Source: Sphingomicrobium sp.
GTDB taxonomy: Bacteria; Pseudomonadota; Alphaproteobacteria; Sphingomonadales; Sphingomonadaceae
Direction: 5' to 3'
NCBI GenBank assembly: GCA_039915925.1
Contig: JBDSMG010000073.1
Coordinates: forward strand, 14,902 to 78,901
DNA: 64,000 nucleotides
Under the pieces are notes generated by a model. The model was not told the origin of the DNA, did not search any database, and saw only the letters and a program-made list of their open reading frames with translations. Of the stretch, positions 49,401 to 63,763 are shown one piece after another. The position numbers and the translations under genes are program-made. Every line of letters starts with the position of its first letter. Position 1 is the stretch's first letter.

Positions 49401-51683
49401 GTGACATTCAAGAACCGCCGTCGACTTGCCACCTTCGCGCTGCTGCTGGCGGCAGCATCGGCGCCGGCAATCGCACAGACTGCCGCGCGGCCGTGGCTGA
49501 ACCTCGCACTTACCGCCGATGAGCGTGCTTCGCTCGCCGTCGCGCAAATGACGCGCGACGAAAAACTGTCGCTGGTGTTCGGCCTGTTCGCGACCAACGC
49601 GGAATATAAGAACGGCTACCGGGCGCCGAAGGAAAGCCGCTACGGCTCAGCCGGCTTTATCCCTGGCATTCCGCGCCTTGGCATTCCGCCGCAGTGGCAG
49701 ACGGACGCCGGCGTCGGTGTCGCGACGCAGGGTGGCGCGGACAAGAAGCGTGAGCGCACGTCGCTTCCCTCAGGCATTGCGACCACCGCGACCTGGGATC
49801 CGGAAACAGCGTTCGCGGGCGGCCGGATGATCGGATCCGAAGCGCGCTCTTCGGGTTTCAACGTCATGCTTGCGGGCGGCGTCAACCTGCTTCGCGACCC
49901 GCGCAACGGCCGGAATTTCGAATATGGCGGCGAGGATCCGCTGCTTGCCGGCACTATGGTCGGCGCGCAAATCGCGGGCATCCAGTCGAACAACATCATT
50001 TCGACGATCAAGCATTATGCCCTCAACGATCTCGAAACCGGGCGCTTCGAGCATGATGCGCGGATCAACCGCGGCGCGGCACGCATGTCCGACATGCTGG
50101 CGTTTCAGTTCGGCTTCGAGCGCGGCAATCCCGGGTCGGTGATGTGCGCCTACAACCGCGTGAACAGCGAATATGCCTGCGAGAACAGCTGGCTTCTGAC
50201 CGACCTGCTGCGCAACCAGTTCGGCTTTCAGGGCTATGTGATGTCCGACTGGGGCGCGACCCACAGCACGGAGAAAGCAGCGCTTGCGGGCCTCGACCAG
50301 GAGTCCGGCTGGCCGTTCGACGACAAGCCCTATTTCCGTGAACCACTGGCTGCGGCTGTTGCCGCCGGGCGTGTACCGGAAGCGCGGCTAAATCAGATGG
50401 CGGGTCGAATCCTTCGTTCGATGTTCGAACATGGCGTGATCGACAAGCCCGTGGCGGAGGGCCCGATCGACTTTGCGGCGCATGCGGGGGTGACTCGGCA
50501 GGACGCGGAGCAGGCGATCGTGCTGCTGCAAAACAGGAATAATGTGCTTCCGCTGGCGGCGTCAGCGAAGCGGATCGTCATCATCGGCGGTCATGCTGAC
50601 AAGGGTGTTCTTGCCGGCGGCGGCTCGTCCCTGACCTATCCGGTCGGCGGTAATGCCGTGCCGGGAATTGCACCTACAGGCTGGCCGGGACCGGTACTCT
50701 ATGATCCATCCTCGCCGATGAAGGCCATTCAGGCGCTCGCGCGGAACGCGACCGTGACCTACGTCGACGGTGCCGACCCGGCCGTGGCCGCGCGTGCCGC
50801 CGCTGGTGCCGACGTCGCTCTGCTGTTCCTGACTCGCTGGGAAGGAGAATCGTTCGACGTTCCGATGGGCCTGCCCGACAAGCAGGACGCCTTGGTGGAC
50901 GCGGTTGCAGCGGCCAACCGCAACACTGTCGCGATTCTCGAAACCGGCGGGCCTGTGCTGATGCCGTGGTCCAATCGCGTGGCTTCGATCCTGGAGGCCT
51001 GGTACTCCGGTACATCCGGCGGTGAAGCGATCGCCAATGTGTTGTTCGGAAAGGTCAATCCGTCGGGGCACCTGCCAGTGACTTTCGCGGCGAGCGAAGC
51101 GCAGCTGCCACGCCCGGTTCGTCCCGGCACCGGGCTGCCCGAAAAGCAGATGTTCGCGATCGACTATAATGAGGGCGCCGCGGTCGGATACAAATGGTTC
51201 GACGCGCGCGGCATCCAGCCCCTGTTCCCGTTCGGGCACGGCCTCAGCTACACGAGCTTTGCGATGAGCCGGCTTAGCGCAGCGCCGACGCAGGATGGCG
51301 GAGCAACGGTCAGCTTCACGGTCCGCAACACCGGCAAGCGCCGTGGCGCCGAGGTCGCGCAGGTCTATGCCTCGCCCGTGAACGGCGGCTGGGAAGCGCC
51401 GAAGCGGCTGGCCGCCTTCAGCAAGGTCGATCTTGCGCCAGGGCAGTCGAAGCGGCTGACCCTCAGCGTCGATCCGCGCCTGCTCGCCACTTTCGACGAA
51501 GCGAGCAACAGCTGGGTAATCGGCGGCGGCGCCTACAAGCTGATGCTTGGCGCTTCGGCGCGGGAGCTTGGAAGCTCGACCACGATCCAGTTGCTGGCGA
51601 GGACTCTGCCCGGCAATTGGCGCCCGGGCGCTGCGGCCGCAACGGCACCGGCCGCCGGCTCGGTTGTGCCGGAGCGCGGCTAA
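49401..51683 (+). CDS. GH3 beta-glucosidase/xylosidase, signal peptide, C-terminal Ala/Pro tail ending PERG
   Basis: RDPRNGRNFEYGGEDP, TIKHYA, VMSDWG, WEGESFD, FnIII (AEVAQVY); ends ...PAAGSVVPERG. Confidence 0.92.
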   Translation: MTFKNRRRLATFALLLAAASAPAIAQTAARPWLNLALTADERASLAVAQMTRDEKLSLVFGLFATNAEYKNGYRAPKESRYGSAGFIPGIPRLGIPPQWQTDAGVGVATQGGADKKRERTSLPSGIATTATWDPETAFAGGRMIGSEARSSGFNVMLAGGVNLLRDPRNGRNFEYGGEDPLLAGTMVGAQIAGIQSNNIISTIKHYALNDLETGRFEHDARINRGAARMSDMLAFQFGFERGNPGSVMCAYNRVNSEYACENSWLLTDLLRNQFGFQGYVMSDWGATHSTEKAALAGLDQESGWPFDDKPYFREPLAAAVAAGRVPEARLNQMAGRILRSMFEHGVIDKPVAEGPIDFAAHAGVTRQDAEQAIVLLQNRNNVLPLAASAKRIVIIGGHADKGVLAGGGSSLTYPVGGNAVPGIAPTGWPGPVLYDPSSPMKAIQALARNATVTYVDGADPAVAARAAAGADVALLFLTRWEGESFDVPMGLPDKQDALVDAVAAANRNTVAILETGGPVLMPWSNRVASILEAWYSGTSGGEAIANVLFGKVNPSGHLPVTFAASEAQLPRPVRPGTGLPEKQMFAIDYNEGAAVGYKWFDARGIQPLFPFGHGLSYTSFAMSRLSAAPTQDGGATVSFTVRNTGKRRGAEVAQVYASPVNGGWEAPKRLAAFSKVDLAPGQSKRLTLSVDPRLLATFDEASNSWVIGGGAYKLMLGASARELGSSTTIQLLARTLPGNWRPGAAAATAPAAGSVVPERG

Positions 51684-55309: not shown

Positions 55310-56317
55310 ATGGCTCGGTTCCGTTGGATCGCCGCGGTTGCGGCATTGATCGTCAGTGCATGCACTCCATTAGCACTCGAGCGCCCTGCGGCCTCAGCGA
55401 CTGCGGTCAGCGCGATGCAGTTCAAGCGCGGCGTCAACGTGCTGGGGTACGATCCGTATTGGACCGATCCTTCGAAGGCGCGATTCCAGTGGCGGCACCT
55501 TGCCGAGATTAAGCGTGCCGGGTTCGACCACGTTCGGCTCGTGGTGTTCGCTTTCAAATTCATGGACGCGCAGAACCGGCTCGACACCAAGTGGCTCGAG
55601 CGGCTCGATGCGGCGGTGCGGGAAGCCCAGGCGGCTGGGCTCGGCGTGATCGTCGACGAACATGATTTCGACACCTGTGCCAAAGACGTGCCCGCGTGCC
55701 GCGTAAAGCTTCCGGCCTTCTGGCGGCAGATCGCGCCGCGCTATGCGAGTGCGCCCGACAGCATCGCGTTCGAGCTGCTCAACGAGCCGCACAAGGCGCT
55801 CGACCCGGTCTGGAACGACATGCTTGCGGAGCTTCTCGGAATCGTTCGCCAGTCGAACCCGACGCGCACGGTCGTCGTCGGCCCCACAAGCTGGAACAGC
55901 TTCCACAATCTTCCGACGCTCCGGTTGCCCGAAGGTGACCGCAATCTGCTCGTGACCTTCCATTATTACGATCCCTTCCGCTTTACCCACCAAGGGGCGA
56001 GCTGGACGGACATGGTTGGACTGCGCGGCGTGACCTTCGGAAGCGAGGCCGATCTGGCGCAGATCCGCAAGGACTTCGACGAAGTCGCCGCGTGGGCGCG
56101 GGCGAACAACCGTCCGATCCTGCTCGGTGAATTCGGCGCCTATGACAAGAGCGGAACGCCGATCGAGATGCGTGCGGCCTACGCGAACGCCGTCGCCCGC
56201 GAGGCGGAGCTCCACGGCTTCGGCTGGGACTATTGGCAGTTCGACAGCGATTTCATCGTCTGGGACATGCAGAAGAACGGCTGGAATGAGCCAATCCTGA
56301 AGGCTCTGATCCCCTAG
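55310..56317 (+). CDS. GH5 endoglucanase-like lipoprotein (subfamily 25-like)
   Basis: From ATG 55310: IVSAC lipobox; FELLNEPH, TFHYYDPFRFTHQGASW, LLGEFGAY, YWQF. Confidence 0.87.
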   Translation: MARFRWIAAVAALIVSACTPLALERPAASATAVSAMQFKRGVNVLGYDPYWTDPSKARFQWRHLAEIKRAGFDHVRLVVFAFKFMDAQNRLDTKWLERLDAAVREAQAAGLGVIVDEHDFDTCAKDVPACRVKLPAFWRQIAPRYASAPDSIAFELLNEPHKALDPVWNDMLAELLGIVRQSNPTRTVVVGPTSWNSFHNLPTLRLPEGDRNLLVTFHYYDPFRFTHQGASWTDMVGLRGVTFGSEADLAQIRKDFDEVAAWARANNRPILLGEFGAYDKSGTPIEMRAAYANAVAREAELHGFGWDYWQFDSDFIVWDMQKNGWNEPILKALIP

Positions 56318-57363
56318 CCGCGTTCGCCCCGCGAGAAGAACGTCGGGCGGTGCGCCGGCGTCCCGCGCGTCTTGGTCCGGACGGACGCGAGCATGTCGGA
56401 CGAGGTCATGAAAAGCGTGTGCCCGTCGGGTCCGCCGAACGTCACGTTGGCGGTCGCCTTGCCTGTCGAGATGCGGCCGAGCTCCTTTCCCGAAGGCGCG
56501 AAGACGTGCACTCCGCCCGGACCGGTCGCGAAGATGTTGCCGTGCTGGTCGACGGTCATCCCGTCAGGCAGGCCAGGCAGACCTTGTGCGACCAGCTTCG
56601 TCATGTCCGAGAAGACGCGGGCTCGCGACACCGTGGCGCCGTTGACGTCATACGCCATGATGATCGCGCGCTTCGGGTCGGACACCGCAACATAGAGGGT
56701 CTTTCCGTCCGGCGAGAGCGCAAGGCCGTTGGGGAAGGTGAGGTCCGGAACAGCCAAGCTGATGCTGCCGTCGGGGGCGAGACGATAGACGCCGTTGACC
56801 GGCTGCTCCTTCAGCGGAGAGTCGTTGATGCCTTCGAGGCCGTAAGGCGGATCGGTGAACCAGATTGCGCCGTCCGCAGTGACCACAACGTCGTTCGGCG
56901 AGTTGAACCTTTTGCCGTTGAACCGGTCCGCGAGAATGCGCTTGGCCTTGGTCGCGAGATTGATGGCGACGACGGCGCGGCTGCCATGATCGGCCGCAAG
57001 GATCTCGCCCGAACCTCCCGGTTTCAGTCCATTGGTGCCTGGCTCGCGGAACCCGGGTTTCGCTGGCCCATTGCCCCCTGCAGGCTCCATCCACACCGAG
57101 AAACCGTCGCGTGCGCTCCATTTGTGGATCCTGTTGCCTGGGACGTCGCTCAGCAGCACATATTGCCCGTCGGCGATCCAAACCGGTCCCTCCGACCATT
57201 GCATGCCGCCGCCGAGCTTCTGGATCGGCGCATGTGCGTCGATCAGCCGGTCGAGCGCAGGCGCGGTTCGCACGATCTGGCTTCCCGGGATCGTGGTCAC
57301 AATCGGTGCTGCTCCGGTGAGTGAAAGGAGGAGGGCGGCGGCGAGGATGCGGGTGCTTTTCAT
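56314..57363 (-). CDS. Exported SMP-30/gluconolactonase family protein ending GERG
   Basis: Signal peptide; WSEGPVW, FNSPND, WFTDPPYGL, PNGLALSPD, LPDGMTVD; ends ...RPTFFSRGERG. Confidence 0.9.
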   Translation of the reverse strand: MKSTRILAAALLLSLTGAAPIVTTIPGSQIVRTAPALDRLIDAHAPIQKLGGGMQWSEGPVWIADGQYVLLSDVPGNRIHKWSARDGFSVWMEPAGGNGPAKPGFREPGTNGLKPGGSGEILAADHGSRAVVAINLATKAKRILADRFNGKRFNSPNDVVVTADGAIWFTDPPYGLEGINDSPLKEQPVNGVYRLAPDGSISLAVPDLTFPNGLALSPDGKTLYVAVSDPKRAIIMAYDVNGATVSRARVFSDMTKLVAQGLPGLPDGMTVDQHGNIFATGPGGVHVFAPSGKELGRISTGKATANVTFGGPDGHTLFMTSSDMLASVRTKTRGTPAHRPTFFSRGERG

Positions 57364-57402: not shown

Positions 57403-58008
57403 TCAGCTGTTCGTCGTAAGACGCTTCAGCTTGTCGAGTGCTGCTGAATCCGCTTCGTCGGGAGCGATGGTCGATTGGAAATCGCCATGCCGATCGAACA
57501 AGAGCACGGTCGCCGTGTGGTCCACCGTGTAGGCGCCGTTCTCGCCCGGATGCTTCTCGGAGAAGATGCCGAACTTTTTATTCACCTGCGCAATCTGCTG
57601 CGGACTTCCCGTAAGGCCGATCACGGGTGAACCGAACAGATCCACATAATTGCGCATCTCGGTCGGGCCGTCGCGCTCCGGATCGACCGTCACGAAAAGG
57701 ATCGCGAACGGCTGCTTGCCTGCGAGTTGCTGCCGCAGCCGGACGAGGCGGGCGAGGGTGGTCGGGCAGACGTCCGGGCAATGGGTGAAGCCGAAGAAAA
57801 TCGCATATGGTCGGCCGGCGAGGCTGCGGCTGTCGAACGGCAGTGCGTCCGTACCGACTAGCGTGAACGGCCCGCTCAGCTTGATCGCGGACGCCTGTTC
57901 TTGGTCCGGGAGTGGCTGCGAAAGCCGCTCGCGAAAGAGCAGCAATGCACCCGCGGCGATCAGCACCAGCGCGACCAAGATCCAAAGAACGAGCCTGAGG
58001 CGTTTCAC
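57403..58008 (-). CDS. SCO1/SenC copper chaperone
   Basis: N-terminal TM helix, FFGFTHCPDVCPTTL, VDPERD, YTVDHT. Confidence 0.93.
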   Translation of the reverse strand: MKRLRLVLWILVALVLIAAGALLLFRERLSQPLPDQEQASAIKLSGPFTLVGTDALPFDSRSLAGRPYAIFFGFTHCPDVCPTTLARLVRLRQQLAGKQPFAILFVTVDPERDGPTEMRNYVDLFGSPVIGLTGSPQQIAQVNKKFGIFSEKHPGENGAYTVDHTATVLLFDRHGDFQSTIAPDEADSAALDKLKRLTTNS

Positions 58009-58466
58009 AGCTTAGTGCCATGCGCGTGGCTGGACGCGTTCGCTTCGCCGACCTGGACTTGCACCTGCTGCTCGGGCGATTTCTCGAACCGAAGCGTGAT
58101 CAGGAAGCTCGTTCCGGCCCGGAGTGGTGCACGAAGGCCCTCAAGCATGATGTGCGTGCCGTTTGGTTTCAGTTCGACGGTCGAATGCGGCGCAACGTCA
58201 AGCCCGCCGTCGAGCGAGCGCATCCGCATAACACCGCCCTCCATTGACGATTCGTGAAGCGAGGCCCGCGCGCCGTCGCCAGTGTGTACGGACAGCAGTC
58301 GATCGCTCGCCGCGCCGCGATTTACGATGTTCAGGTAGACCACGGCCGCCTGTTCGCGCGCTGCCGTCGGGCGGCTCCATGCCTTGTCGGCGCCGACATC
58401 TGGCTCGGACGGCGGGCTGCAGGAGGCGGCGAGAATCAGCAGAAGGAGAGAGGCTCGGCACTTCAT
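58005..58466 (-). CDS. Copper chaperone PCu(A)C, lipoprotein
   Basis: From ATG 58466: LAASC; SLHESSM..VMRM, LKPNGTHIML; GTGA overlap with SCO. Confidence 0.88.
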   Translation of the reverse strand: MKCRASLLLLILAASCSPPSEPDVGADKAWSRPTAAREQAAVVYLNIVNRGAASDRLLSVHTGDGARASLHESSMEGGVMRMRSLDGGLDVAPHSTVELKPNGTHIMLEGLRAPLRAGTSFLITLRFEKSPEQQVQVQVGEANASSHAHGTKL

Positions 58467-58477
58467 GCGGCGCCGAT

Positions 58478-58518
58478 AAAAGAAAAACCCCGGACGAGCC
58501 ATGGTCTCGTCCGGGGTT
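58478..58518 (-). terminator. Rho-independent terminator after the beta-barrel gene
   Basis: AACCCCGGACGAG-ccatggt-CTCGTCCGGGGTT 13 bp stem, followed by TTTCTTTT on the minus strand. Confidence 0.85.
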
Positions 58519-58549: not shown

Positions 58550-59422
58550 TTATCCGCGCTCAGGCGCCGGCGGCGGCGGCGGCGGCGGCGGAGGCGGAAC
58601 CGGGCACGCATCCGTTGCCAGGATCACCGAGCCGTCCGGGCACGTCTGCGTCGCAGGAGGCGGCGGAGGCGGCGGGGGCGGAGGCGGCGGCGGAGGCGGA
58701 GGAGGAGGCGGCGGCGGAGCGAAGTTGTAGATCAAGCTCGCCAGCAAGCTGTGCGACTTGAAGTTCGTCCGATAGTCGAAGCCGTGGCCCATCACGTCGT
58801 TCTTGAGCGTGCCGGCGGAGAAGTAGCGATACTTCACGCCTGCATCGAGAGTCGGCGTGATGGCGGTGCGGACGCCGGCGATTATCTGCCACGCGAGGCG
58901 ATCAGTATCACGCAGGTGGTAAGCCGAGTCACCGATCTGATCGACGGTCTGGCTGACCCGTGCCGGACCAACGCCGCCACCAGCATAGAAGCTGGTGCCG
59001 TTTTCGTCGCCGAGATCAACCAGCGCGTTCACCATCAGACTCGTGACACTCGTGCGGCCACCGCCGTCGACGGTCACGCCTGGCCCCGTGCCTGCAGGAA
59101 ACAGACCGGCAGCCTTCGGATCGATGTTATACTCTTTGTGACGCGAGCGCTTGCGAGCGAGTTCGCCTTCCAGACGGAACATGCCGAAGTCGTACCCGGC
59201 GATGAGGTCCGCGTCGTAACCGATCTTGTGATCGATCGACAGCCAATCGCCCCAATCCGGGTAGCGCGTTGTCGCCGTCAGCGGGAAGTTGCGACGGTCG
59301 ACGTTTGAGTTCTTGGCGATCAGAGCGCCAAGCTCCGCGCCAACGTAACCGGAACCGTCGCGAGCCATTGCAGGTGAAGCAATGGCAGCGGCGGCTACGG
59401 CGGCGAGTAATAGTATTCGCAT
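58550..59422 (-). CDS. Outer-membrane beta-barrel protein (OmpA transmembrane-like) with polyproline tail ending PERG
   Basis: Signal peptide ...SPAMA; GYVGAELG, GYDFGMFRLEGEL, FYAGGGVG, LDAGVKYRYF, last strand LIYNF; then P21-ATQTCPDGSVILATDACPV-P10-APERG. Confidence 0.85.
   Translation of the reverse strand: MRILLLAAVAAAAIASPAMARDGSGYVGAELGALIAKNSNVDRRNFPLTATTRYPDWGDWLSIDHKIGYDADLIAGYDFGMFRLEGELARKRSRHKEYNIDPKAAGLFPAGTGPGVTVDGGGRTSVTSLMVNALVDLGDENGTSFYAGGGVGPARVSQTVDQIGDSAYHLRDTDRLAWQIIAGVRTAITPTLDAGVKYRYFSAGTLKNDVMGHGFDYRTNFKSHSLLASLIYNFAPPPPPPPPPPPPPPPPPPPPPATQTCPDGSVILATDACPVPPPPPPPPPPAPERG
58568..58717 (-). repeat. Two coding CCN trinucleotide runs (21 and 10 Pro codons)
   Basis: 58655-58717 and 58568-58597, mixed CCG/CCT/CCC codons counted from the sequence. 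Confidence 0.9.
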
Positions 59423-59718
59423 GTTAACCCCTTTATCTTTGCCGATGCACAGGCGGGTAAACCCAAAAGCCGCGAGTCCGATAGTTGTTCCGAGCAGTTG
59501 AAATGATCACAGCCCTTCTACTATCAAGTGCGCTTACGGTATTTACGAGGCCAGCCAGCCTCCCGCCGTTGCGCCGTCGTAATGCCCCAATCAAGCTTTG
59601 GTTTCACAACCCGCACCAAAATCGACGCGAACTGTTGTTCTCCGATGTAAAACTGCAACAGTATGGAGGCGTTACGAACCGCAATTTTCTGCGGGACGGT
59701 TCGGCCCCGAGACGATTG

Positions 59719-59821: not shown

Positions 59822-60535
59822 ATGTTGGTTCGACTGCGAAAATCTCGTCGGCGCGCAGTGCTGGTGCCTGCAGCCTGCTTAGTCTGCGCGTGGCCTGCAG
59901 AGGGCCAGGCGGTGCCGGCGCCGACGATTTTGCTTCCTGGCCCGGAAACGCTTCCGGCCGGCGACGATGAGCATTTTCGCAGCCACATGTTGTCATGGTC
60001 AGGCGCGAAGCTGGTACGCGGGCAAGTGAAGGAGGCATTCGAAACCACCCGGGCACAGCGCCTGTATATTTCATCGCCGTTCGGATGGCGGAGCGATCCT
60101 ATCAAAGGGATTCGGCGACGGCACGACGGTGTCGACCTGCCCGGCCGGTTTGGAACGCGGGTCTATGCGACCGGAGCAGGAGTGGTAACGTTAGCACGCG
60201 TTGCGGGTGGTTACGGCAATTTGGTCCAAATTGATCATAGCGATGGAGTGAGAACGCGTTACGGCCATCTTTCTCGAATTCTCGTGAGCGAAGGTATGGT
60301 GCTTCGCCCCGGAAGTCTGATCGGCGAGGTGGGCTCTACCGGGCGGTCGACTGGACCGCACTTGCATTATGAGGTGCGGGTCGACGGCAGGCCGGTCGAT
60401 CCGCTGCGTTTCATGGGTCAAACCGTGCCGCGCTACGAGACGACCTGGACTCCCGATCTGCCCGTGACGCGCAAGTGGGCGGGATGGGAAACAATCGGTA
60501 CTGTGGCAAGTTTGCCTCAGGCACGGATTCGTTAA
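59822..60535 (+). CDS. M23 family metallopeptidase
   Basis: ISSPFGWRSDP, HDGVD (HxxxD), GYGNLVQIDH, TRYGHL, STGRSTGPHLHYEV. Confidence 0.9.
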   Translation: MLVRLRKSRRRAVLVPAACLVCAWPAEGQAVPAPTILLPGPETLPAGDDEHFRSHMLSWSGAKLVRGQVKEAFETTRAQRLYISSPFGWRSDPIKGIRRRHDGVDLPGRFGTRVYATGAGVVTLARVAGGYGNLVQIDHSDGVRTRYGHLSRILVSEGMVLRPGSLIGEVGSTGRSTGPHLHYEVRVDGRPVDPLRFMGQTVPRYETTWTPDLPVTRKWAGWETIGTVASLPQARIR

Positions 60536-61582: not shown

Positions 61583-61786
61583 CAGCCCGGAGTCGACTGA
61601 CAGACGGGGAGTGGTGGTTCCTTATCTAGCTCGGCCTTACACACCCCTGCTGCAGGGTTGTCCTCTGGTTTCAGTCGCCCCGGGTGCTCGCGGTCAACTC
61701 CTTGACGAATGCTATGGGCGCGTTACGGCGCTGCGATTGGCTGGGCCGGGGCTTTCATCCTGAGTGCCTGTCCGGGGAAAGTTTCA

Positions 61787-63763
61787 ATGATGAACCGTTG
61801 GTCCTTCCGATTTGTGTTTCGGACGAGTGTACCGTTACTTGCCGCGCTTGCGTTTTCCACTGCGGGGACTTCCAACGCGCAGGTCAGCGGCTACCCGCTC
61901 GATCCTTACGCCCAAGACTCCGGTACCAGGGCAAATTCGCAGTATGGAACGCGGACGACCGCCGGGCAGACGGCGCGAAACGTGGCCGATACTCAGACCT
62001 CGATCTCCGTCACCGAACCCTCCAACCCCTATGAGCCCGACCAGATCCGCGCGGACCCCGATCGCGACACGACGCAGCAGCAGCGCGCGTACGACCTCGA
62101 TGACGACACGCGCCAGCTGACTCCGGAGGAACGCGAACAGGTTCGGCAACAGCTCCGGAGCGCTGCTCGGCGTCCGGTCCAGCCAAGTGAGTTCGAGCAA
62201 TATGTCTCGAAGATCGTCAACCGGCCGCTGCGCCGCTTCGGCGCCAATCTGCTGGTTCCTGAAGCGCGTAATTTTACTTCGCCGCCGACGACGACGGTCC
62301 CGACCGACTATCGGCTCAATCCGGGCGACGAACTTCGGGTCGGGCTTACCGGCTCGGTCCAGGCCAGCAACCTTCGACTGACGATCGACTCCGAAGGCCG
62401 GATTTTCATTCCCCGTGTCGGGCCGGTCGACGTCGCCGGCGTCCGCTATGGCGACGTCCAGGCCTTGATCGCGCGTCAAGTCGCTCGTGAATATCGCAAT
62501 TTTCGAGTGGCCGTTTCGATCGGAAGGCTGCACGGCATCACGGTTTACGTGACCGGTTTTGCAGCGGTTCCGGGCTCATACACCGTCAGCAGCCTGTCGA
62601 CCTTGGTCAATGCCGTACTGACTGCAGGTGGACCGTCGGCCGGCGGCAGCTTCCGCTCGATCCAGGTCCGTCGAAACGGGCAACTCATCTCGGACTTCGA
62701 TCTCTACGACCTGCTGTTGAAGGGAGATAAGAGCGCGGATGTCATTCTTCAGAATGGGGATGTCATCTACATCGCTCCGGCCGGGCCTCAGGTGGCCGTC
62801 GTCGGCAGCGTCAACGTCGAAGCAATCTACGAGGCCCGCTCGAACGAGACGATTTACGACATGCTTCTCTACGCTGGCGGGATCAACACGGTTGCCGAAA
62901 GCGGCCGGCTTCTTCTGTTCGATTCCACGAAGCCGGGGGGCTGGCAGGAATTGGCCGCGGCCCAGGTCCAGTCGCGGCCCGCGGCGCGTGGCGAAGTCGT
63001 CCGCGTGCTCTCCGCCGTAGGGCTTGCGCAGCCGCTGTTCCGGCAGCCCGCGCTGGTTTCGGTCACCGGCGAGATCGTCAATCCGGGGCGCTATTATGTC
63101 CAGCCGGGAACTCCCGTGAGCACGGTTATTGCCCGCGCTGGTGGCCTTACTTCGCAGGCTTTCCCTTTCGGCACTGTGTTCACGCGGGAAAGCGTCCGTC
63201 AGACTCAACAGGATAGCTATGAGCGCGCGATGCGCGACGCGGAACTGTTGCTGACGACGGCGCCGCTGACTTCGTCATCCCAATCGCAGCAGCTGCAGCC
63301 CGCGAGGCTGGAGGCTGTACGCTCGGTGGTTCAGCAGTTGCGCGCGCGAAAGCCGGACGGGCGGCTCGTGCTCGACGTTCAGCCCTCCGACCGCGCATTG
63401 CCGGCCGACATGATCGTCGAGAATAACGACACCATCTACGTCCCGTCGCAGCCGGTAACGGTCGGCGTTTTCGGCGCCGTCCCGACCCCCGCTTCATTCC
63501 AGTATCGTCAGGGCCAGCGGGTCGCGGATTATCTTCGCCAGGCCGGAGGTATCCAGAAGATCGGCGACAAGTCGCAAATCTTCGTGATCCGCGCGAACGG
63601 CGTGGTCCTACCACGCCGCGACGCGCTCCGCGCGTATGCGCTTCCCGGCGATCTGATCTTCGTGCCGGTGAACGCCAATCGCGGAGAGTTCTGGGAGCAT
63701 CTACGCGACGTATCTTCTGTGATTCTGCCGACGGTCCTGACCGGGGCGGCGCTCGCAAAATGA
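61787..63763 (+). CDS. Polysaccharide export protein with SLBB repeats (KpsD/Wza-like)
   Basis: From ATG 61787: signal peptide; DYRLNPGDEL, GRIFIPRVG, repeated V.V.G.V..P SLBB units, YTVSSLSTL, LQNGDVIYI. Confidence 0.87.
   Translation: MMNRWSFRFVFRTSVPLLAALAFSTAGTSNAQVSGYPLDPYAQDSGTRANSQYGTRTTAGQTARNVADTQTSISVTEPSNPYEPDQIRADPDRDTTQQQRAYDLDDDTRQLTPEEREQVRQQLRSAARRPVQPSEFEQYVSKIVNRPLRRFGANLLVPEARNFTSPPTTTVPTDYRLNPGDELRVGLTGSVQASNLRLTIDSEGRIFIPRVGPVDVAGVRYGDVQALIARQVAREYRNFRVAVSIGRLHGITVYVTGFAAVPGSYTVSSLSTLVNAVLTAGGPSAGGSFRSIQVRRNGQLISDFDLYDLLLKGDKSADVILQNGDVIYIAPAGPQVAVVGSVNVEAIYEARSNETIYDMLLYAGGINTVAESGRLLLFDSTKPGGWQELAAAQVQSRPAARGEVVRVLSAVGLAQPLFRQPALVSVTGEIVNPGRYYVQPGTPVSTVIARAGGLTSQAFPFGTVFTRESVRQTQQDSYERAMRDAELLLTTAPLTSSSQSQQLQPARLEAVRSVVQQLRARKPDGRLVLDVQPSDRALPADMIVENNDTIYVPSQPVTVGVFGAVPTPASFQYRQGQRVADYLRQAGGIQKIGDKSQIFVIRANGVVLPRRDALRAYALPGDLIFVPVNANRGEFWEHLRDVSSVILPTVLTGAALAK

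Follow-up and report, generated by a model that had tools for sequence, protein, structure and literature searches.

A conserved polyproline tail ending in Glu-Arg-Gly on outer-membrane barrels of Sphingomicrobium, a candidate tether to peptidoglycan

An outer-membrane (OM) β-barrel protein encoded in a 64,000-nucleotide stretch of DNA from Sphingomicrobium sp. (the window; assembly GCA_039915925.1, contig JBDSMG010000073.1, positions 14,902 to 78,901) carries a conserved C-terminal tail, in which two polyproline runs flank a Cys-x11-Cys loop and the last residues are Glu-Arg-Gly (ERG). Comparative sequence analysis indicates that this gene, at 58550–59422, is the barrel half of an OmpA-type gene from which the ancestral peptidoglycan-binding domain (OmpA_C) was removed by gene fission. 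We put at about even the prospect that the barrel and hinge left by the fission would tether the OM to peptidoglycan, the ERG end being handled by L,D-transpeptidases (LDTs). A more specific chemistry is offered only tentatively, and we think it somewhat doubtful: xERG-COOH, made by the ribosome, would imitate the stem peptide of peptidoglycan and serve as LDT acyl donor, with Gly released and Arg joined to meso-diaminopimelic acid (mDAP).

Results

Architecture and conservation of the tail

The first-pass annotation of this gene had described an OmpA-like barrel whose peptidoglycan-binding domain is replaced by a polyproline rod, a 'two-Cys knot' and PERG. The open reading frame confirms the order of the elements exactly, with LIYNF at the end of the barrel followed by 21 prolines, ATQTCPDGSVILATDACPV, 10 prolines and APERG (Table 1). 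OmpA_C is indeed missing: Pfam assigned OMP_b-brl only (PF13505; 46 bits against a cut-off of 28.7, E=8e-12, residues 6–218), and PF00691 (OmpA_C) gave no match at E≤1. The description as OmpA-like held for the fold, since the top structures found by Foldseek were the OmpA transmembrane domain (E=1e-8), OmpW, NspA and Pla/OmpT, but not for the family, which is of the Omp25/Omp31/opacity type; PF01389 (OmpA_membrane) scored 12.4 bits, below its cut-off of 21. For the tail itself, neither Pfam nor NCBIfam returned a known domain, and Pfam was negative even for proteins with tandem Cys loops.

An AlphaFold2 model built with 66 homologues predicted the barrel with confidence (predicted local distance difference test, pLDDT, 87.7; ten β segments). 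Low pLDDT was obtained for the signal peptide region, modelled as a helix at residues 2–13; the surrounding P17, A18, A20 and D22 are conserved in the 66-sequence alignment. Within the Cys loop the model places a tiny β-hairpin (strands 258–260 and 266–268), which is probably closed by a disulfide. The spacer lengths given in Table 1 correspond to a polyproline II rise of about 0.31 nm per residue. With an intrinsic terminator 32 nt downstream and a Shine-Dalgarno-like element 5 nt before the ATG, the stop after APERG can be taken as real, and an origin of the tail as an artefact or through a lost stop codon is ruled out by the terminator and by conservation among homologues.

A homologue search of 5.8 billion proteins gave 1859 matches. 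Nearly all of the best 120 end in polyP - ATQTCPDGSVILATDACP - polyP - xERG at the extreme C-terminus, and the named sources among them are Sphingomicrobium or Sphingomonas; their barrels are 50–70% identical. The 66-sequence alignment shows no substitution at Q259, C261, D263, G264, C273 and G290 and almost none at R289; the barrels are 52–76% identical and the tail is more highly conserved than the barrel. The C-terminus lies 17 residues beyond the second Cys in 77 of 105 homologues (16–19 in 97%), and the proximal spacer is variable, with 20–27 residues in most homologues. At the DNA level, the 21-proline run is written with 12 CCG, 8 CCT and 1 CCC codons and the 10-proline run with 9 CCG and 1 CCT. 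CCT thus makes up 38% of the codons in the longer run, against 6.7% of proline codons genome-wide, and its interleaving with CCG would fit avoidance of an uninterrupted trinucleotide repeat. Taken from sequence comparison, the tail is not a chance product and is under strong selection at the protein level; the earlier suggestion of selection on the protein rather than slippage is upheld by the mixed codons, in which a rare one is enriched, and by retention of the tail in more than 100 homologues.

Carriers and location of the tail

A second profile search covered 1.84 billion cluster representatives and returned 340 matches, and 104 of the best 149 of these carry the tail at the C-terminus. 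The carriers were small barrels, TonB-dependent receptors and autotransporter β-domains, and in the receptors and autotransporters the tail directly follows the terminal aromatic residue of the last strand. A TonB-dependent receptor of 1150 residues in the window's genome (contig C26), for instance, has the tail after ...YYLGARYRF. All three classes of barrel have periplasmic C-termini. Because the tail follows the last strand in each of them, and is in sister genera the hinge that leads into OmpA_C (see below), a periplasmic location, as the first-pass annotation had supposed, is strongly implied.

Alternatively, the tail might be a functionless remnant of the fission, a slippage-prone low-complexity extension or a surface-exposed, adhesin-like appendage. 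The tract is GC-rich and repetitive, and the protein has a weak NCBIfam match to the rickettsial adhesin Adr (NF052636). However, that match, at 59.7 bits, lies far under its cut-off of 210. The breadth of conservation, the transfer of the tail to other protein classes, the codon composition and the fixed length of the distal spacer all speak against such explanations, as do the periplasmic C-termini of the barrels that the tail follows and its counterpart in sister proteins, where the same hinge precedes a periplasmic domain. We regard this alternative as highly improbable and, given the conservation seen in the sequences, as largely refuted.

A search of proteomes for the Cys module located it on barrels, TonB-dependent receptors and autotransporters, in tandem arrays and in internal linkers. 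The idea that the 'two-Cys knot' always precedes ERG had to be abandoned, as there are internal and tandem copies without ERG, and ERG also occurs without a Cys loop. Judged by where it occurs in sequences, the Cys loop is a linker repeat of wide distribution, and alone it does not predict ERG. The highest-scoring profile matches were in fact tandem Cys-x11-Cys arrays in unrelated secreted proteins of other lineages. These arrays (P0121–P0136, e.g. P0122, P0132 and P0135) hold 5–12 copies in secreted proteins and lipoproteins of diverse bacteria; their unit has the consensus Q/K-T-C-P/W-D/N-G-S/T-V-I-x5-C-P and belongs to no Pfam family. A 533-residue exported protein from a complete genome of the window's genus (G232:C1:2192356-2193957) has polyP - GVCPDGSVILANEFCP - polyP as an internal linker between domains. 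In an autotransporter of 1918 residues (P0165) the polyP - Cys-loop unit occurs twice in tandem before ...SKGERG, so the length of the tether may be extendable in modules.

Comparison with intact OmpA-type proteins

A 40-position profile of the tail was run over 251 genomes from 77 genera of the order. Each of the 12 genomes of the window's genus contained 3–8 copies; outside it, 5 more of the 77 genera gave matches, all weak or variant. Two of these (L018 and L021) are full-length proteins of sister genera, in which a homologous barrel ending ...WRSHSLLGT.xFNFGG is followed by Cys-loop/polyproline hinge modules and then by a genuine OmpA_C (...PPPPPPACARGPYLVFFDWDQ...), which begins with PY directly after ...ARG or ...NKG. 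In 6 of the 12 genomes of the window's genus, a separate OmpA_C gene lies 100–300 bp downstream of the ERG-tailed barrel gene. Its product has 130–180 residues and its own signal peptide, and some copies retain a degenerate Cys loop. As sister genera keep barrel, hinge and OmpA_C intact and the window's genus has them split, the claim that the peptidoglycan-binding domain was replaced is right in evolutionary terms, the barrel half now ending in ERG.

The window's genome itself has 2 OmpA_C matches, namely Pal adjoining TolB and one lipoprotein; the median for the family is about 6. A genus-wide loss of OmpA_C was considered and rejected, since the other genomes of the genus have 2–7 matches. 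The Pal-like OmpA_C protein right after TolB (C37:19660-20133, locus L034) has a signal peptide without a lipobox Cys (MRGLIAGFALALAGPLAAQVPVAP...), and judging from this sequence the Pal of the window's genome may not be a lipoprotein.

The split arrangement could also be read as non-covalent docking. ERG-COOH, with its stem-peptide-like charge pattern, would then bind the standalone OmpA_C protein, Pal or peptidoglycan, or would help to recruit an LDT by docking at its donor site; the two parts of the split OmpA would come together again non-covalently. The presence, in half of the genomes, of an exported OmpA_C protein encoded by a gene of its own just after that of the barrel, and the start of OmpA_C right after the Arg-Gly or Lys-Gly of the intact sister proteins would both fit. 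However, the window's genome and genome G189 combine many ERG proteins with two OmpA_C matches and no standalone partner. Docking would also leave unexplained the repeated adjacency to LDT genes and the operon of a glycine-zipper-GERG gene with an LDT gene described below, and we consider it unlikely.

ERG as an independent C-terminal motif

Twelve credible genes in the window's 2.79-Mb genome encode proteins ending in ERG, against about 1–1.6 expected, and nine of them are exported. The nine comprise four barrels, the TonB-dependent receptor, a GH3 glycosidase, an SMP-30/gluconolactonase-like protein, a DUF4142 lipoprotein and a YMGG glycine-zipper lipoprotein. In the GH3 and SMP-30 proteins, PERG or GERG is preceded by a short low-complexity stretch; SMP-30 orthologues were absent from the other genomes of the genus, so that the genus is uninformative on conservation of this ERG. 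GERG follows a proline-rich linker in 120/120 of the best homologues of the DUF4142 lipoprotein, and 119/120 homologues of the glycine-zipper lipoprotein end in [S/A/T]GERG, in both families without a Cys loop. In the complete genome G232 ERG ends were confined to two tandem barrels and one receptor, and the wider repertoire is therefore subclade-specific.

From these sequences, ERG is a C-terminal motif independent of the Cys loop. The traits proposed for an xERG-COOH class are found in its members: they are exported, and have a low-complexity, proline-rich linker and an invariant Arg-Gly that either ends the chain or has a single residue after it. The near-invariant xERG of the barrel homologues and the same ending on the DUF4142 and glycine-zipper lipoproteins support the earlier view of ERG as a functional end. 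In the literature, a search for 'ERG-CTERM' retrieved only Synerg-CTERM.

A short terminal motif on unrelated exported proteins, including the soluble GH3 and SMP-30, would also suit a C-terminal tag, unrelated to peptidoglycan, that directs sorting, retention or quality control by proteolysis in the envelope and is read, for example, by a PDZ protein or a protease that processes C-termini. The known C-terminal sorting signals (LPXTG, PEP-CTERM, GlyGly-CTERM and MYXO-CTERM among others) were rejected, because no hydrophobic segment follows ERG and no NCBIfam or Pfam match to the tail was obtained. A tag of the sorting kind is further disfavoured by the lack of a transmembrane helix or tripartite sorting domain, and the LDT neighbourhood and OmpA-hinge ancestry point instead to peptidoglycan; such a tag seems to us hardly likely.

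L,D-transpeptidase genes beside ERG genes

In 10 of the 12 genomes of the genus, a gene for a YcbB-like LDT (434–561 residues) lies 100–400 bp from an ERG-tailed barrel gene. The two genes are divergent or convergent in the window's genus and tandem in a second genus, and no LDT gene was found beside the intact OmpA genes of the sister genera. The LDT encoded beside the barrel gene is a homologue of E. coli YcbB/LdtD (PDB 6NTW, E=3e-40) and has the catalytic motif HDTP...SNGCVR. The window's genome has three LDT genes that each adjoin an ERG gene, the three ERG genes being of different kinds, and the gene-level chance of at least three such adjacencies is about 7e-5. In this genome the LDT gene next to a paralogous barrel gene is at C44:8135-9478.

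A conserved pairing is that of the glycine-zipper lipoprotein. At 6/6 loci, in the window's genome, in 3/3 metagenome contigs and in two further genera (loci L172-L174, L176 and L177 among them), the gene ending in GERG is followed 12–50 bp on, on the same strand, by a gene for an LDT with Scaffold and YkuD domains. Glycine-zipper homologues that end without ERG have no LDT gene nearby. By analogy, this pair is a possible sphingomonad counterpart of Lpp and its Ldt enzymes.

YkuD-domain genes number 6–11 per genome in the 12 genomes of the window's genus (11 in the window's genome), 7 in the one other genus with an ERG-tailed barrel and 1–6 in 16 other genera. The genomes of the genus measure 2.1–2.8 Mb, and most of the 16 comparison genera have larger ones. 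The mean copy numbers are 8.2 and 3.0 (Mann-Whitney p=6e-6), for samples that are not phylogenetically independent. Tethering of OM proteins to peptidoglycan is described in LDT-rich species (2025 review).

The gene context also invites comparison with an N-terminal link of the Brucella Omp25 or Agrobacterium type, where an LDT makes the bond between mDAP and the amino group of the protein's N-terminus; the tail would then have another role, for instance in spacing, in contact with an inner-membrane or periplasmic partner, or in regulation. The barrel falls in the same Pfam family as Omp25, LDT genes adjoin barrel genes, and the predicted mature N-terminus, R-D-G-S, with a nearly invariant Asp at position 2, resembles the Ala-Asp motif. 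However, strand 1 begins at residue 22 in the model, which leaves the mature N-terminus without a linker. The ARD N-terminus is equally present in OmpA_C-bearing sister proteins that have no LDT neighbour, and the explanation fails for ERG on N-acylated lipoproteins in LDT operons and for tails on receptors and autotransporters. An N-terminal link appears quite improbable.

Genes around the barrel gene

The divergent neighbour of the barrel gene encodes an M23 (LytM-type) peptidase. A conserved pairing of the two was rejected, because it was not seen in the flanks of other loci. On the other side, the first ATG of the PCu(A)C gene falls inside the loop of the barrel-gene terminator, and its true start is therefore probably a later Met before the lipobox.

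Table 1. Features of the barrel gene, its neighbours in the window and the glycine-zipper/LDT pair elsewhere in the same genome. Positions are those of the window unless a contig is named.
Feature	Position	Strand	Remarks
GH3 glycosidase with signal peptide	49401–51683	+	ends ...SVVPERG; another exported ERG protein in the window
SMP-30/gluconolactonase-like exported protein	56314–57363	−	signal peptide; ends ...FFSRGERG
SCO1/SenC	57403–58008	−	downstream of the PCu(A)C gene
PCu(A)C copper chaperone	58005–58502	−	neighbour of the barrel gene
Intrinsic terminator	58486–58518	−	13-bp stem with 9 GC pairs, then TTTCTTTT; 32 nt past the stop
Barrel gene, open reading frame	58550–59422	−	290 residues, ends APERG then TAA; translation read from the sequence
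C-terminal APERG	58553–58567	−	candidate anchoring motif xERG-COOH; conserved in homologues, same ending on lipoproteins
Distal polyproline spacer, residues 276–285	58568–58597	−	10 Pro, ~3 nm
Cys-x11-Cys loop module, residues 257–275	58598–58654	−	ATQTCPDGSVILATDACPV; between the two Pro runs
Proximal polyproline spacer, residues 236–256	58655–58717	−	21 Pro, ~6.5 nm as polyproline II
OM β-barrel, residues 21–235	58718–59362	−	Pfam PF13505; aromatic β-signal near its end, which reads ...SLIYNF-A
Signal peptide, residues 1–20	59363–59422	−	MRILLLAAVAAAAIASPAMA; predicted cleavage A-M-A↓R
Shine-Dalgarno-like AAGGGG	59428–59433	−	5 nt before the ATG; read from the sequence
M23 (LytM-type) peptidase	59822–60535	+	divergent neighbour of the barrel gene
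Wza-like polysaccharide export protein	61709–63763	+	further along
YMGG glycine-zipper lipoprotein	C44:61062-61622		window's genome; ends GERG; upstream partner of the LDT gene
Scaffold+YkuD (YcbB-like) LDT	C44:61634-63010		window's genome; same strand, after the glycine-zipper gene

Discussion

A hinge which once led to OmpA_C has been kept in the window's genus and now ends in ERG. In the mechanism that we propose, the barrel and its hinge (polyproline, disulfide-closed hairpin, polyproline) would form a tether from the OM to peptidoglycan, about 10 nm long if extended. The same tail has been added in this genus after the last strand of 8–10-stranded barrels, TonB-dependent receptors and autotransporters, and OM lipoproteins share the bare xERG; the ERG end would be handled by LDTs of the YcbB/LdtD type. 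If LDTs do act on it, the protein would have to be the acyl donor, because the tails are without Lys (none in residues 235–290 of the barrel protein, and Lys is rare in homologue tails), the N-termini of the lipoproteins are acylated and that of the barrel enters strand 1.

In the donor chemistry, x-Glu-Arg-Gly would mimic the stem tetrapeptide L-Ala-D-iGlu-mDAP-D-Ala. The catalytic Cys would attack the Arg-Gly bond, Gly would leave as D-Ala4 does, its achirality allowing it to replace D-Ala4 as leaving group, and the Arg carbonyl would be passed to the free amine of an mDAP in peptidoglycan. Glycine is among the residues for which LDTs exchange position 4 of the stem. Exchange of that position for D-amino acids other than D-Ala is described (2025 review).

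Several observations weigh against the proposed tether or its chemistry. In all known LDT protein tethers the protein supplies the acceptor amine (2025 review), and we found no precedent in the literature for a protein as LDT acyl donor. Among homologues, the residue before Arg is sometimes Val or Ile instead of Glu. About 20% of the tail-carrying cluster representatives have one residue beyond ERG (Q in 7, L in 3, Y, T and E in 2 each, and others), an extension that misfits a strict tetrapeptide mimic unless it is trimmed; the Gly carboxylate may not be essential, or trimming may occur. The window's own barrel gene is not beside an LDT gene, its neighbours encoding the M23 peptidase and PCu(A)C, and adjacency of barrel and LDT genes, taken alone, could reflect an N-terminal link of the Brucella type. 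The contrast in LDT copy number is essentially that of one genus with the rest. The genes for the DUF4142-GERG lipoprotein and an LDT, 55 bp apart in the window's genome, were tried as a further conserved pair, but the arrangement was absent from 3 other contigs and was therefore dropped as evidence. A dedicated 'ERG' clade of LDTs was also sought, and a tree of 23 catalytic domains did not resolve one.

Much of the framework is already known, namely OmpA hinges, polyproline spacers and tethers made by LDTs. Like OmpA of E. coli and OprF of P. aeruginosa, the protein has a small N-terminal OM barrel followed by a proline-rich periplasmic hinge, and the OprF hinge contains Cys. Unlike them, it has no OmpA_C, its reading frame stops after the hinge with xERG, and its barrel belongs to OMP_b-brl. 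TonB also spans the periplasm with a rigid, polyproline-II-type spacer, but its anchor lies in the inner membrane and its far end is a folded domain, whereas the anchor here is an OM barrel and the end a tripeptide.

Among LDT-made tethers, Lpp holds a distance of about 8.5 nm. In Lpp with LdtA-C, Dickeya OutB and Legionella Lpg1810, as in the ERG proteins, an OM protein or lipoprotein carries its motif at the C-terminus and has a spacer of defined length, and the glycine-zipper-GERG lipoprotein, in an operon with an LDT gene, looks functionally analogous to Lpp and its Ldt. The motifs of these tethers differ, in that the acceptor is a Lys ε-amine (RK, KK or KT) and ERG has no Lys, so that the chemistry would have to be different. 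Established attachment sites are the Lys of Lpp, Lys-Lys in OutB, Lys21 of LimB27 and Lys-Thr in Lpg1810, together with N-terminal Gly-Gly in BpbA and N-terminal Ala-Asp in Omp25 (2025 review).

Brucella Omp25 and Omp2b and OM proteins of Agrobacterium are covalently joined to peptidoglycan by LDTs, according to the accounts of Godessart et al. (2021) given in PMC10787603 and PMC12729407. As in those bacteria, we are dealing with an alphaproteobacterium without Lpp and with an LDT-rich genome, with barrels of the Omp25 family, and with an LDT-dependent link between OM and peptidoglycan that is here only proposed. The difference lies in the site, their acceptor being the amine of an N-terminal Ala-Asp, whereas the conserved element here is an amine-free C-terminal tail ending in Arg-Gly. 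The sortase/LPXTG system offers an analogy only: there, as in the proposed mechanism, a transpeptidase with a catalytic Cys cuts ahead of Gly within a motif at the C-terminus and hands the carbonyl to a peptidoglycan amine. No LPXTG, transmembrane helix or charged tail is present here, however; the candidate enzyme has the YkuD fold, and no sortase is implicated.

Literature searches for C-terminal ERG or Arg-Gly tethers, for the glycine-zipper/LDT pair and for the Sphingomicrobium envelope found nothing, and the papers that we found give no account of a Lys-free xERG-COOH end common to barrels and lipoproteins and linked through gene context to LDTs of the YcbB type. How diderms without Lpp fasten the OM to the wall has been resolved lineage by lineage only since about 2020. 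A proline-rich linker with xERG-COOH makes a small, transferable motif for whose recognition the sequence is enough. Since a candidate enzyme family can be named for it and one of its genes belongs to a conserved operon of two genes, the tether idea is directly testable.

If ERG is an anchor, periplasmic enzymes such as GH3 and SMP-30 may be fastened as well. The donor chemistry, if true, would widen the known range of LDT activity and would yield a very small tag by which proteins could be attached to the peptidoglycan of Gram-negative bacteria, amounting to sortase-like, Lys-free wall anchoring in a Gram-negative bacterium. One lineage could thereby have replaced OmpA_C and fixed to its sacculus not just barrels but also receptors, autotransporters, lipoproteins and even enzymes of the periplasm. 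The barrel gene is, finally, a natural example of a folded domain for peptidoglycan binding giving way to an ending of three residues.

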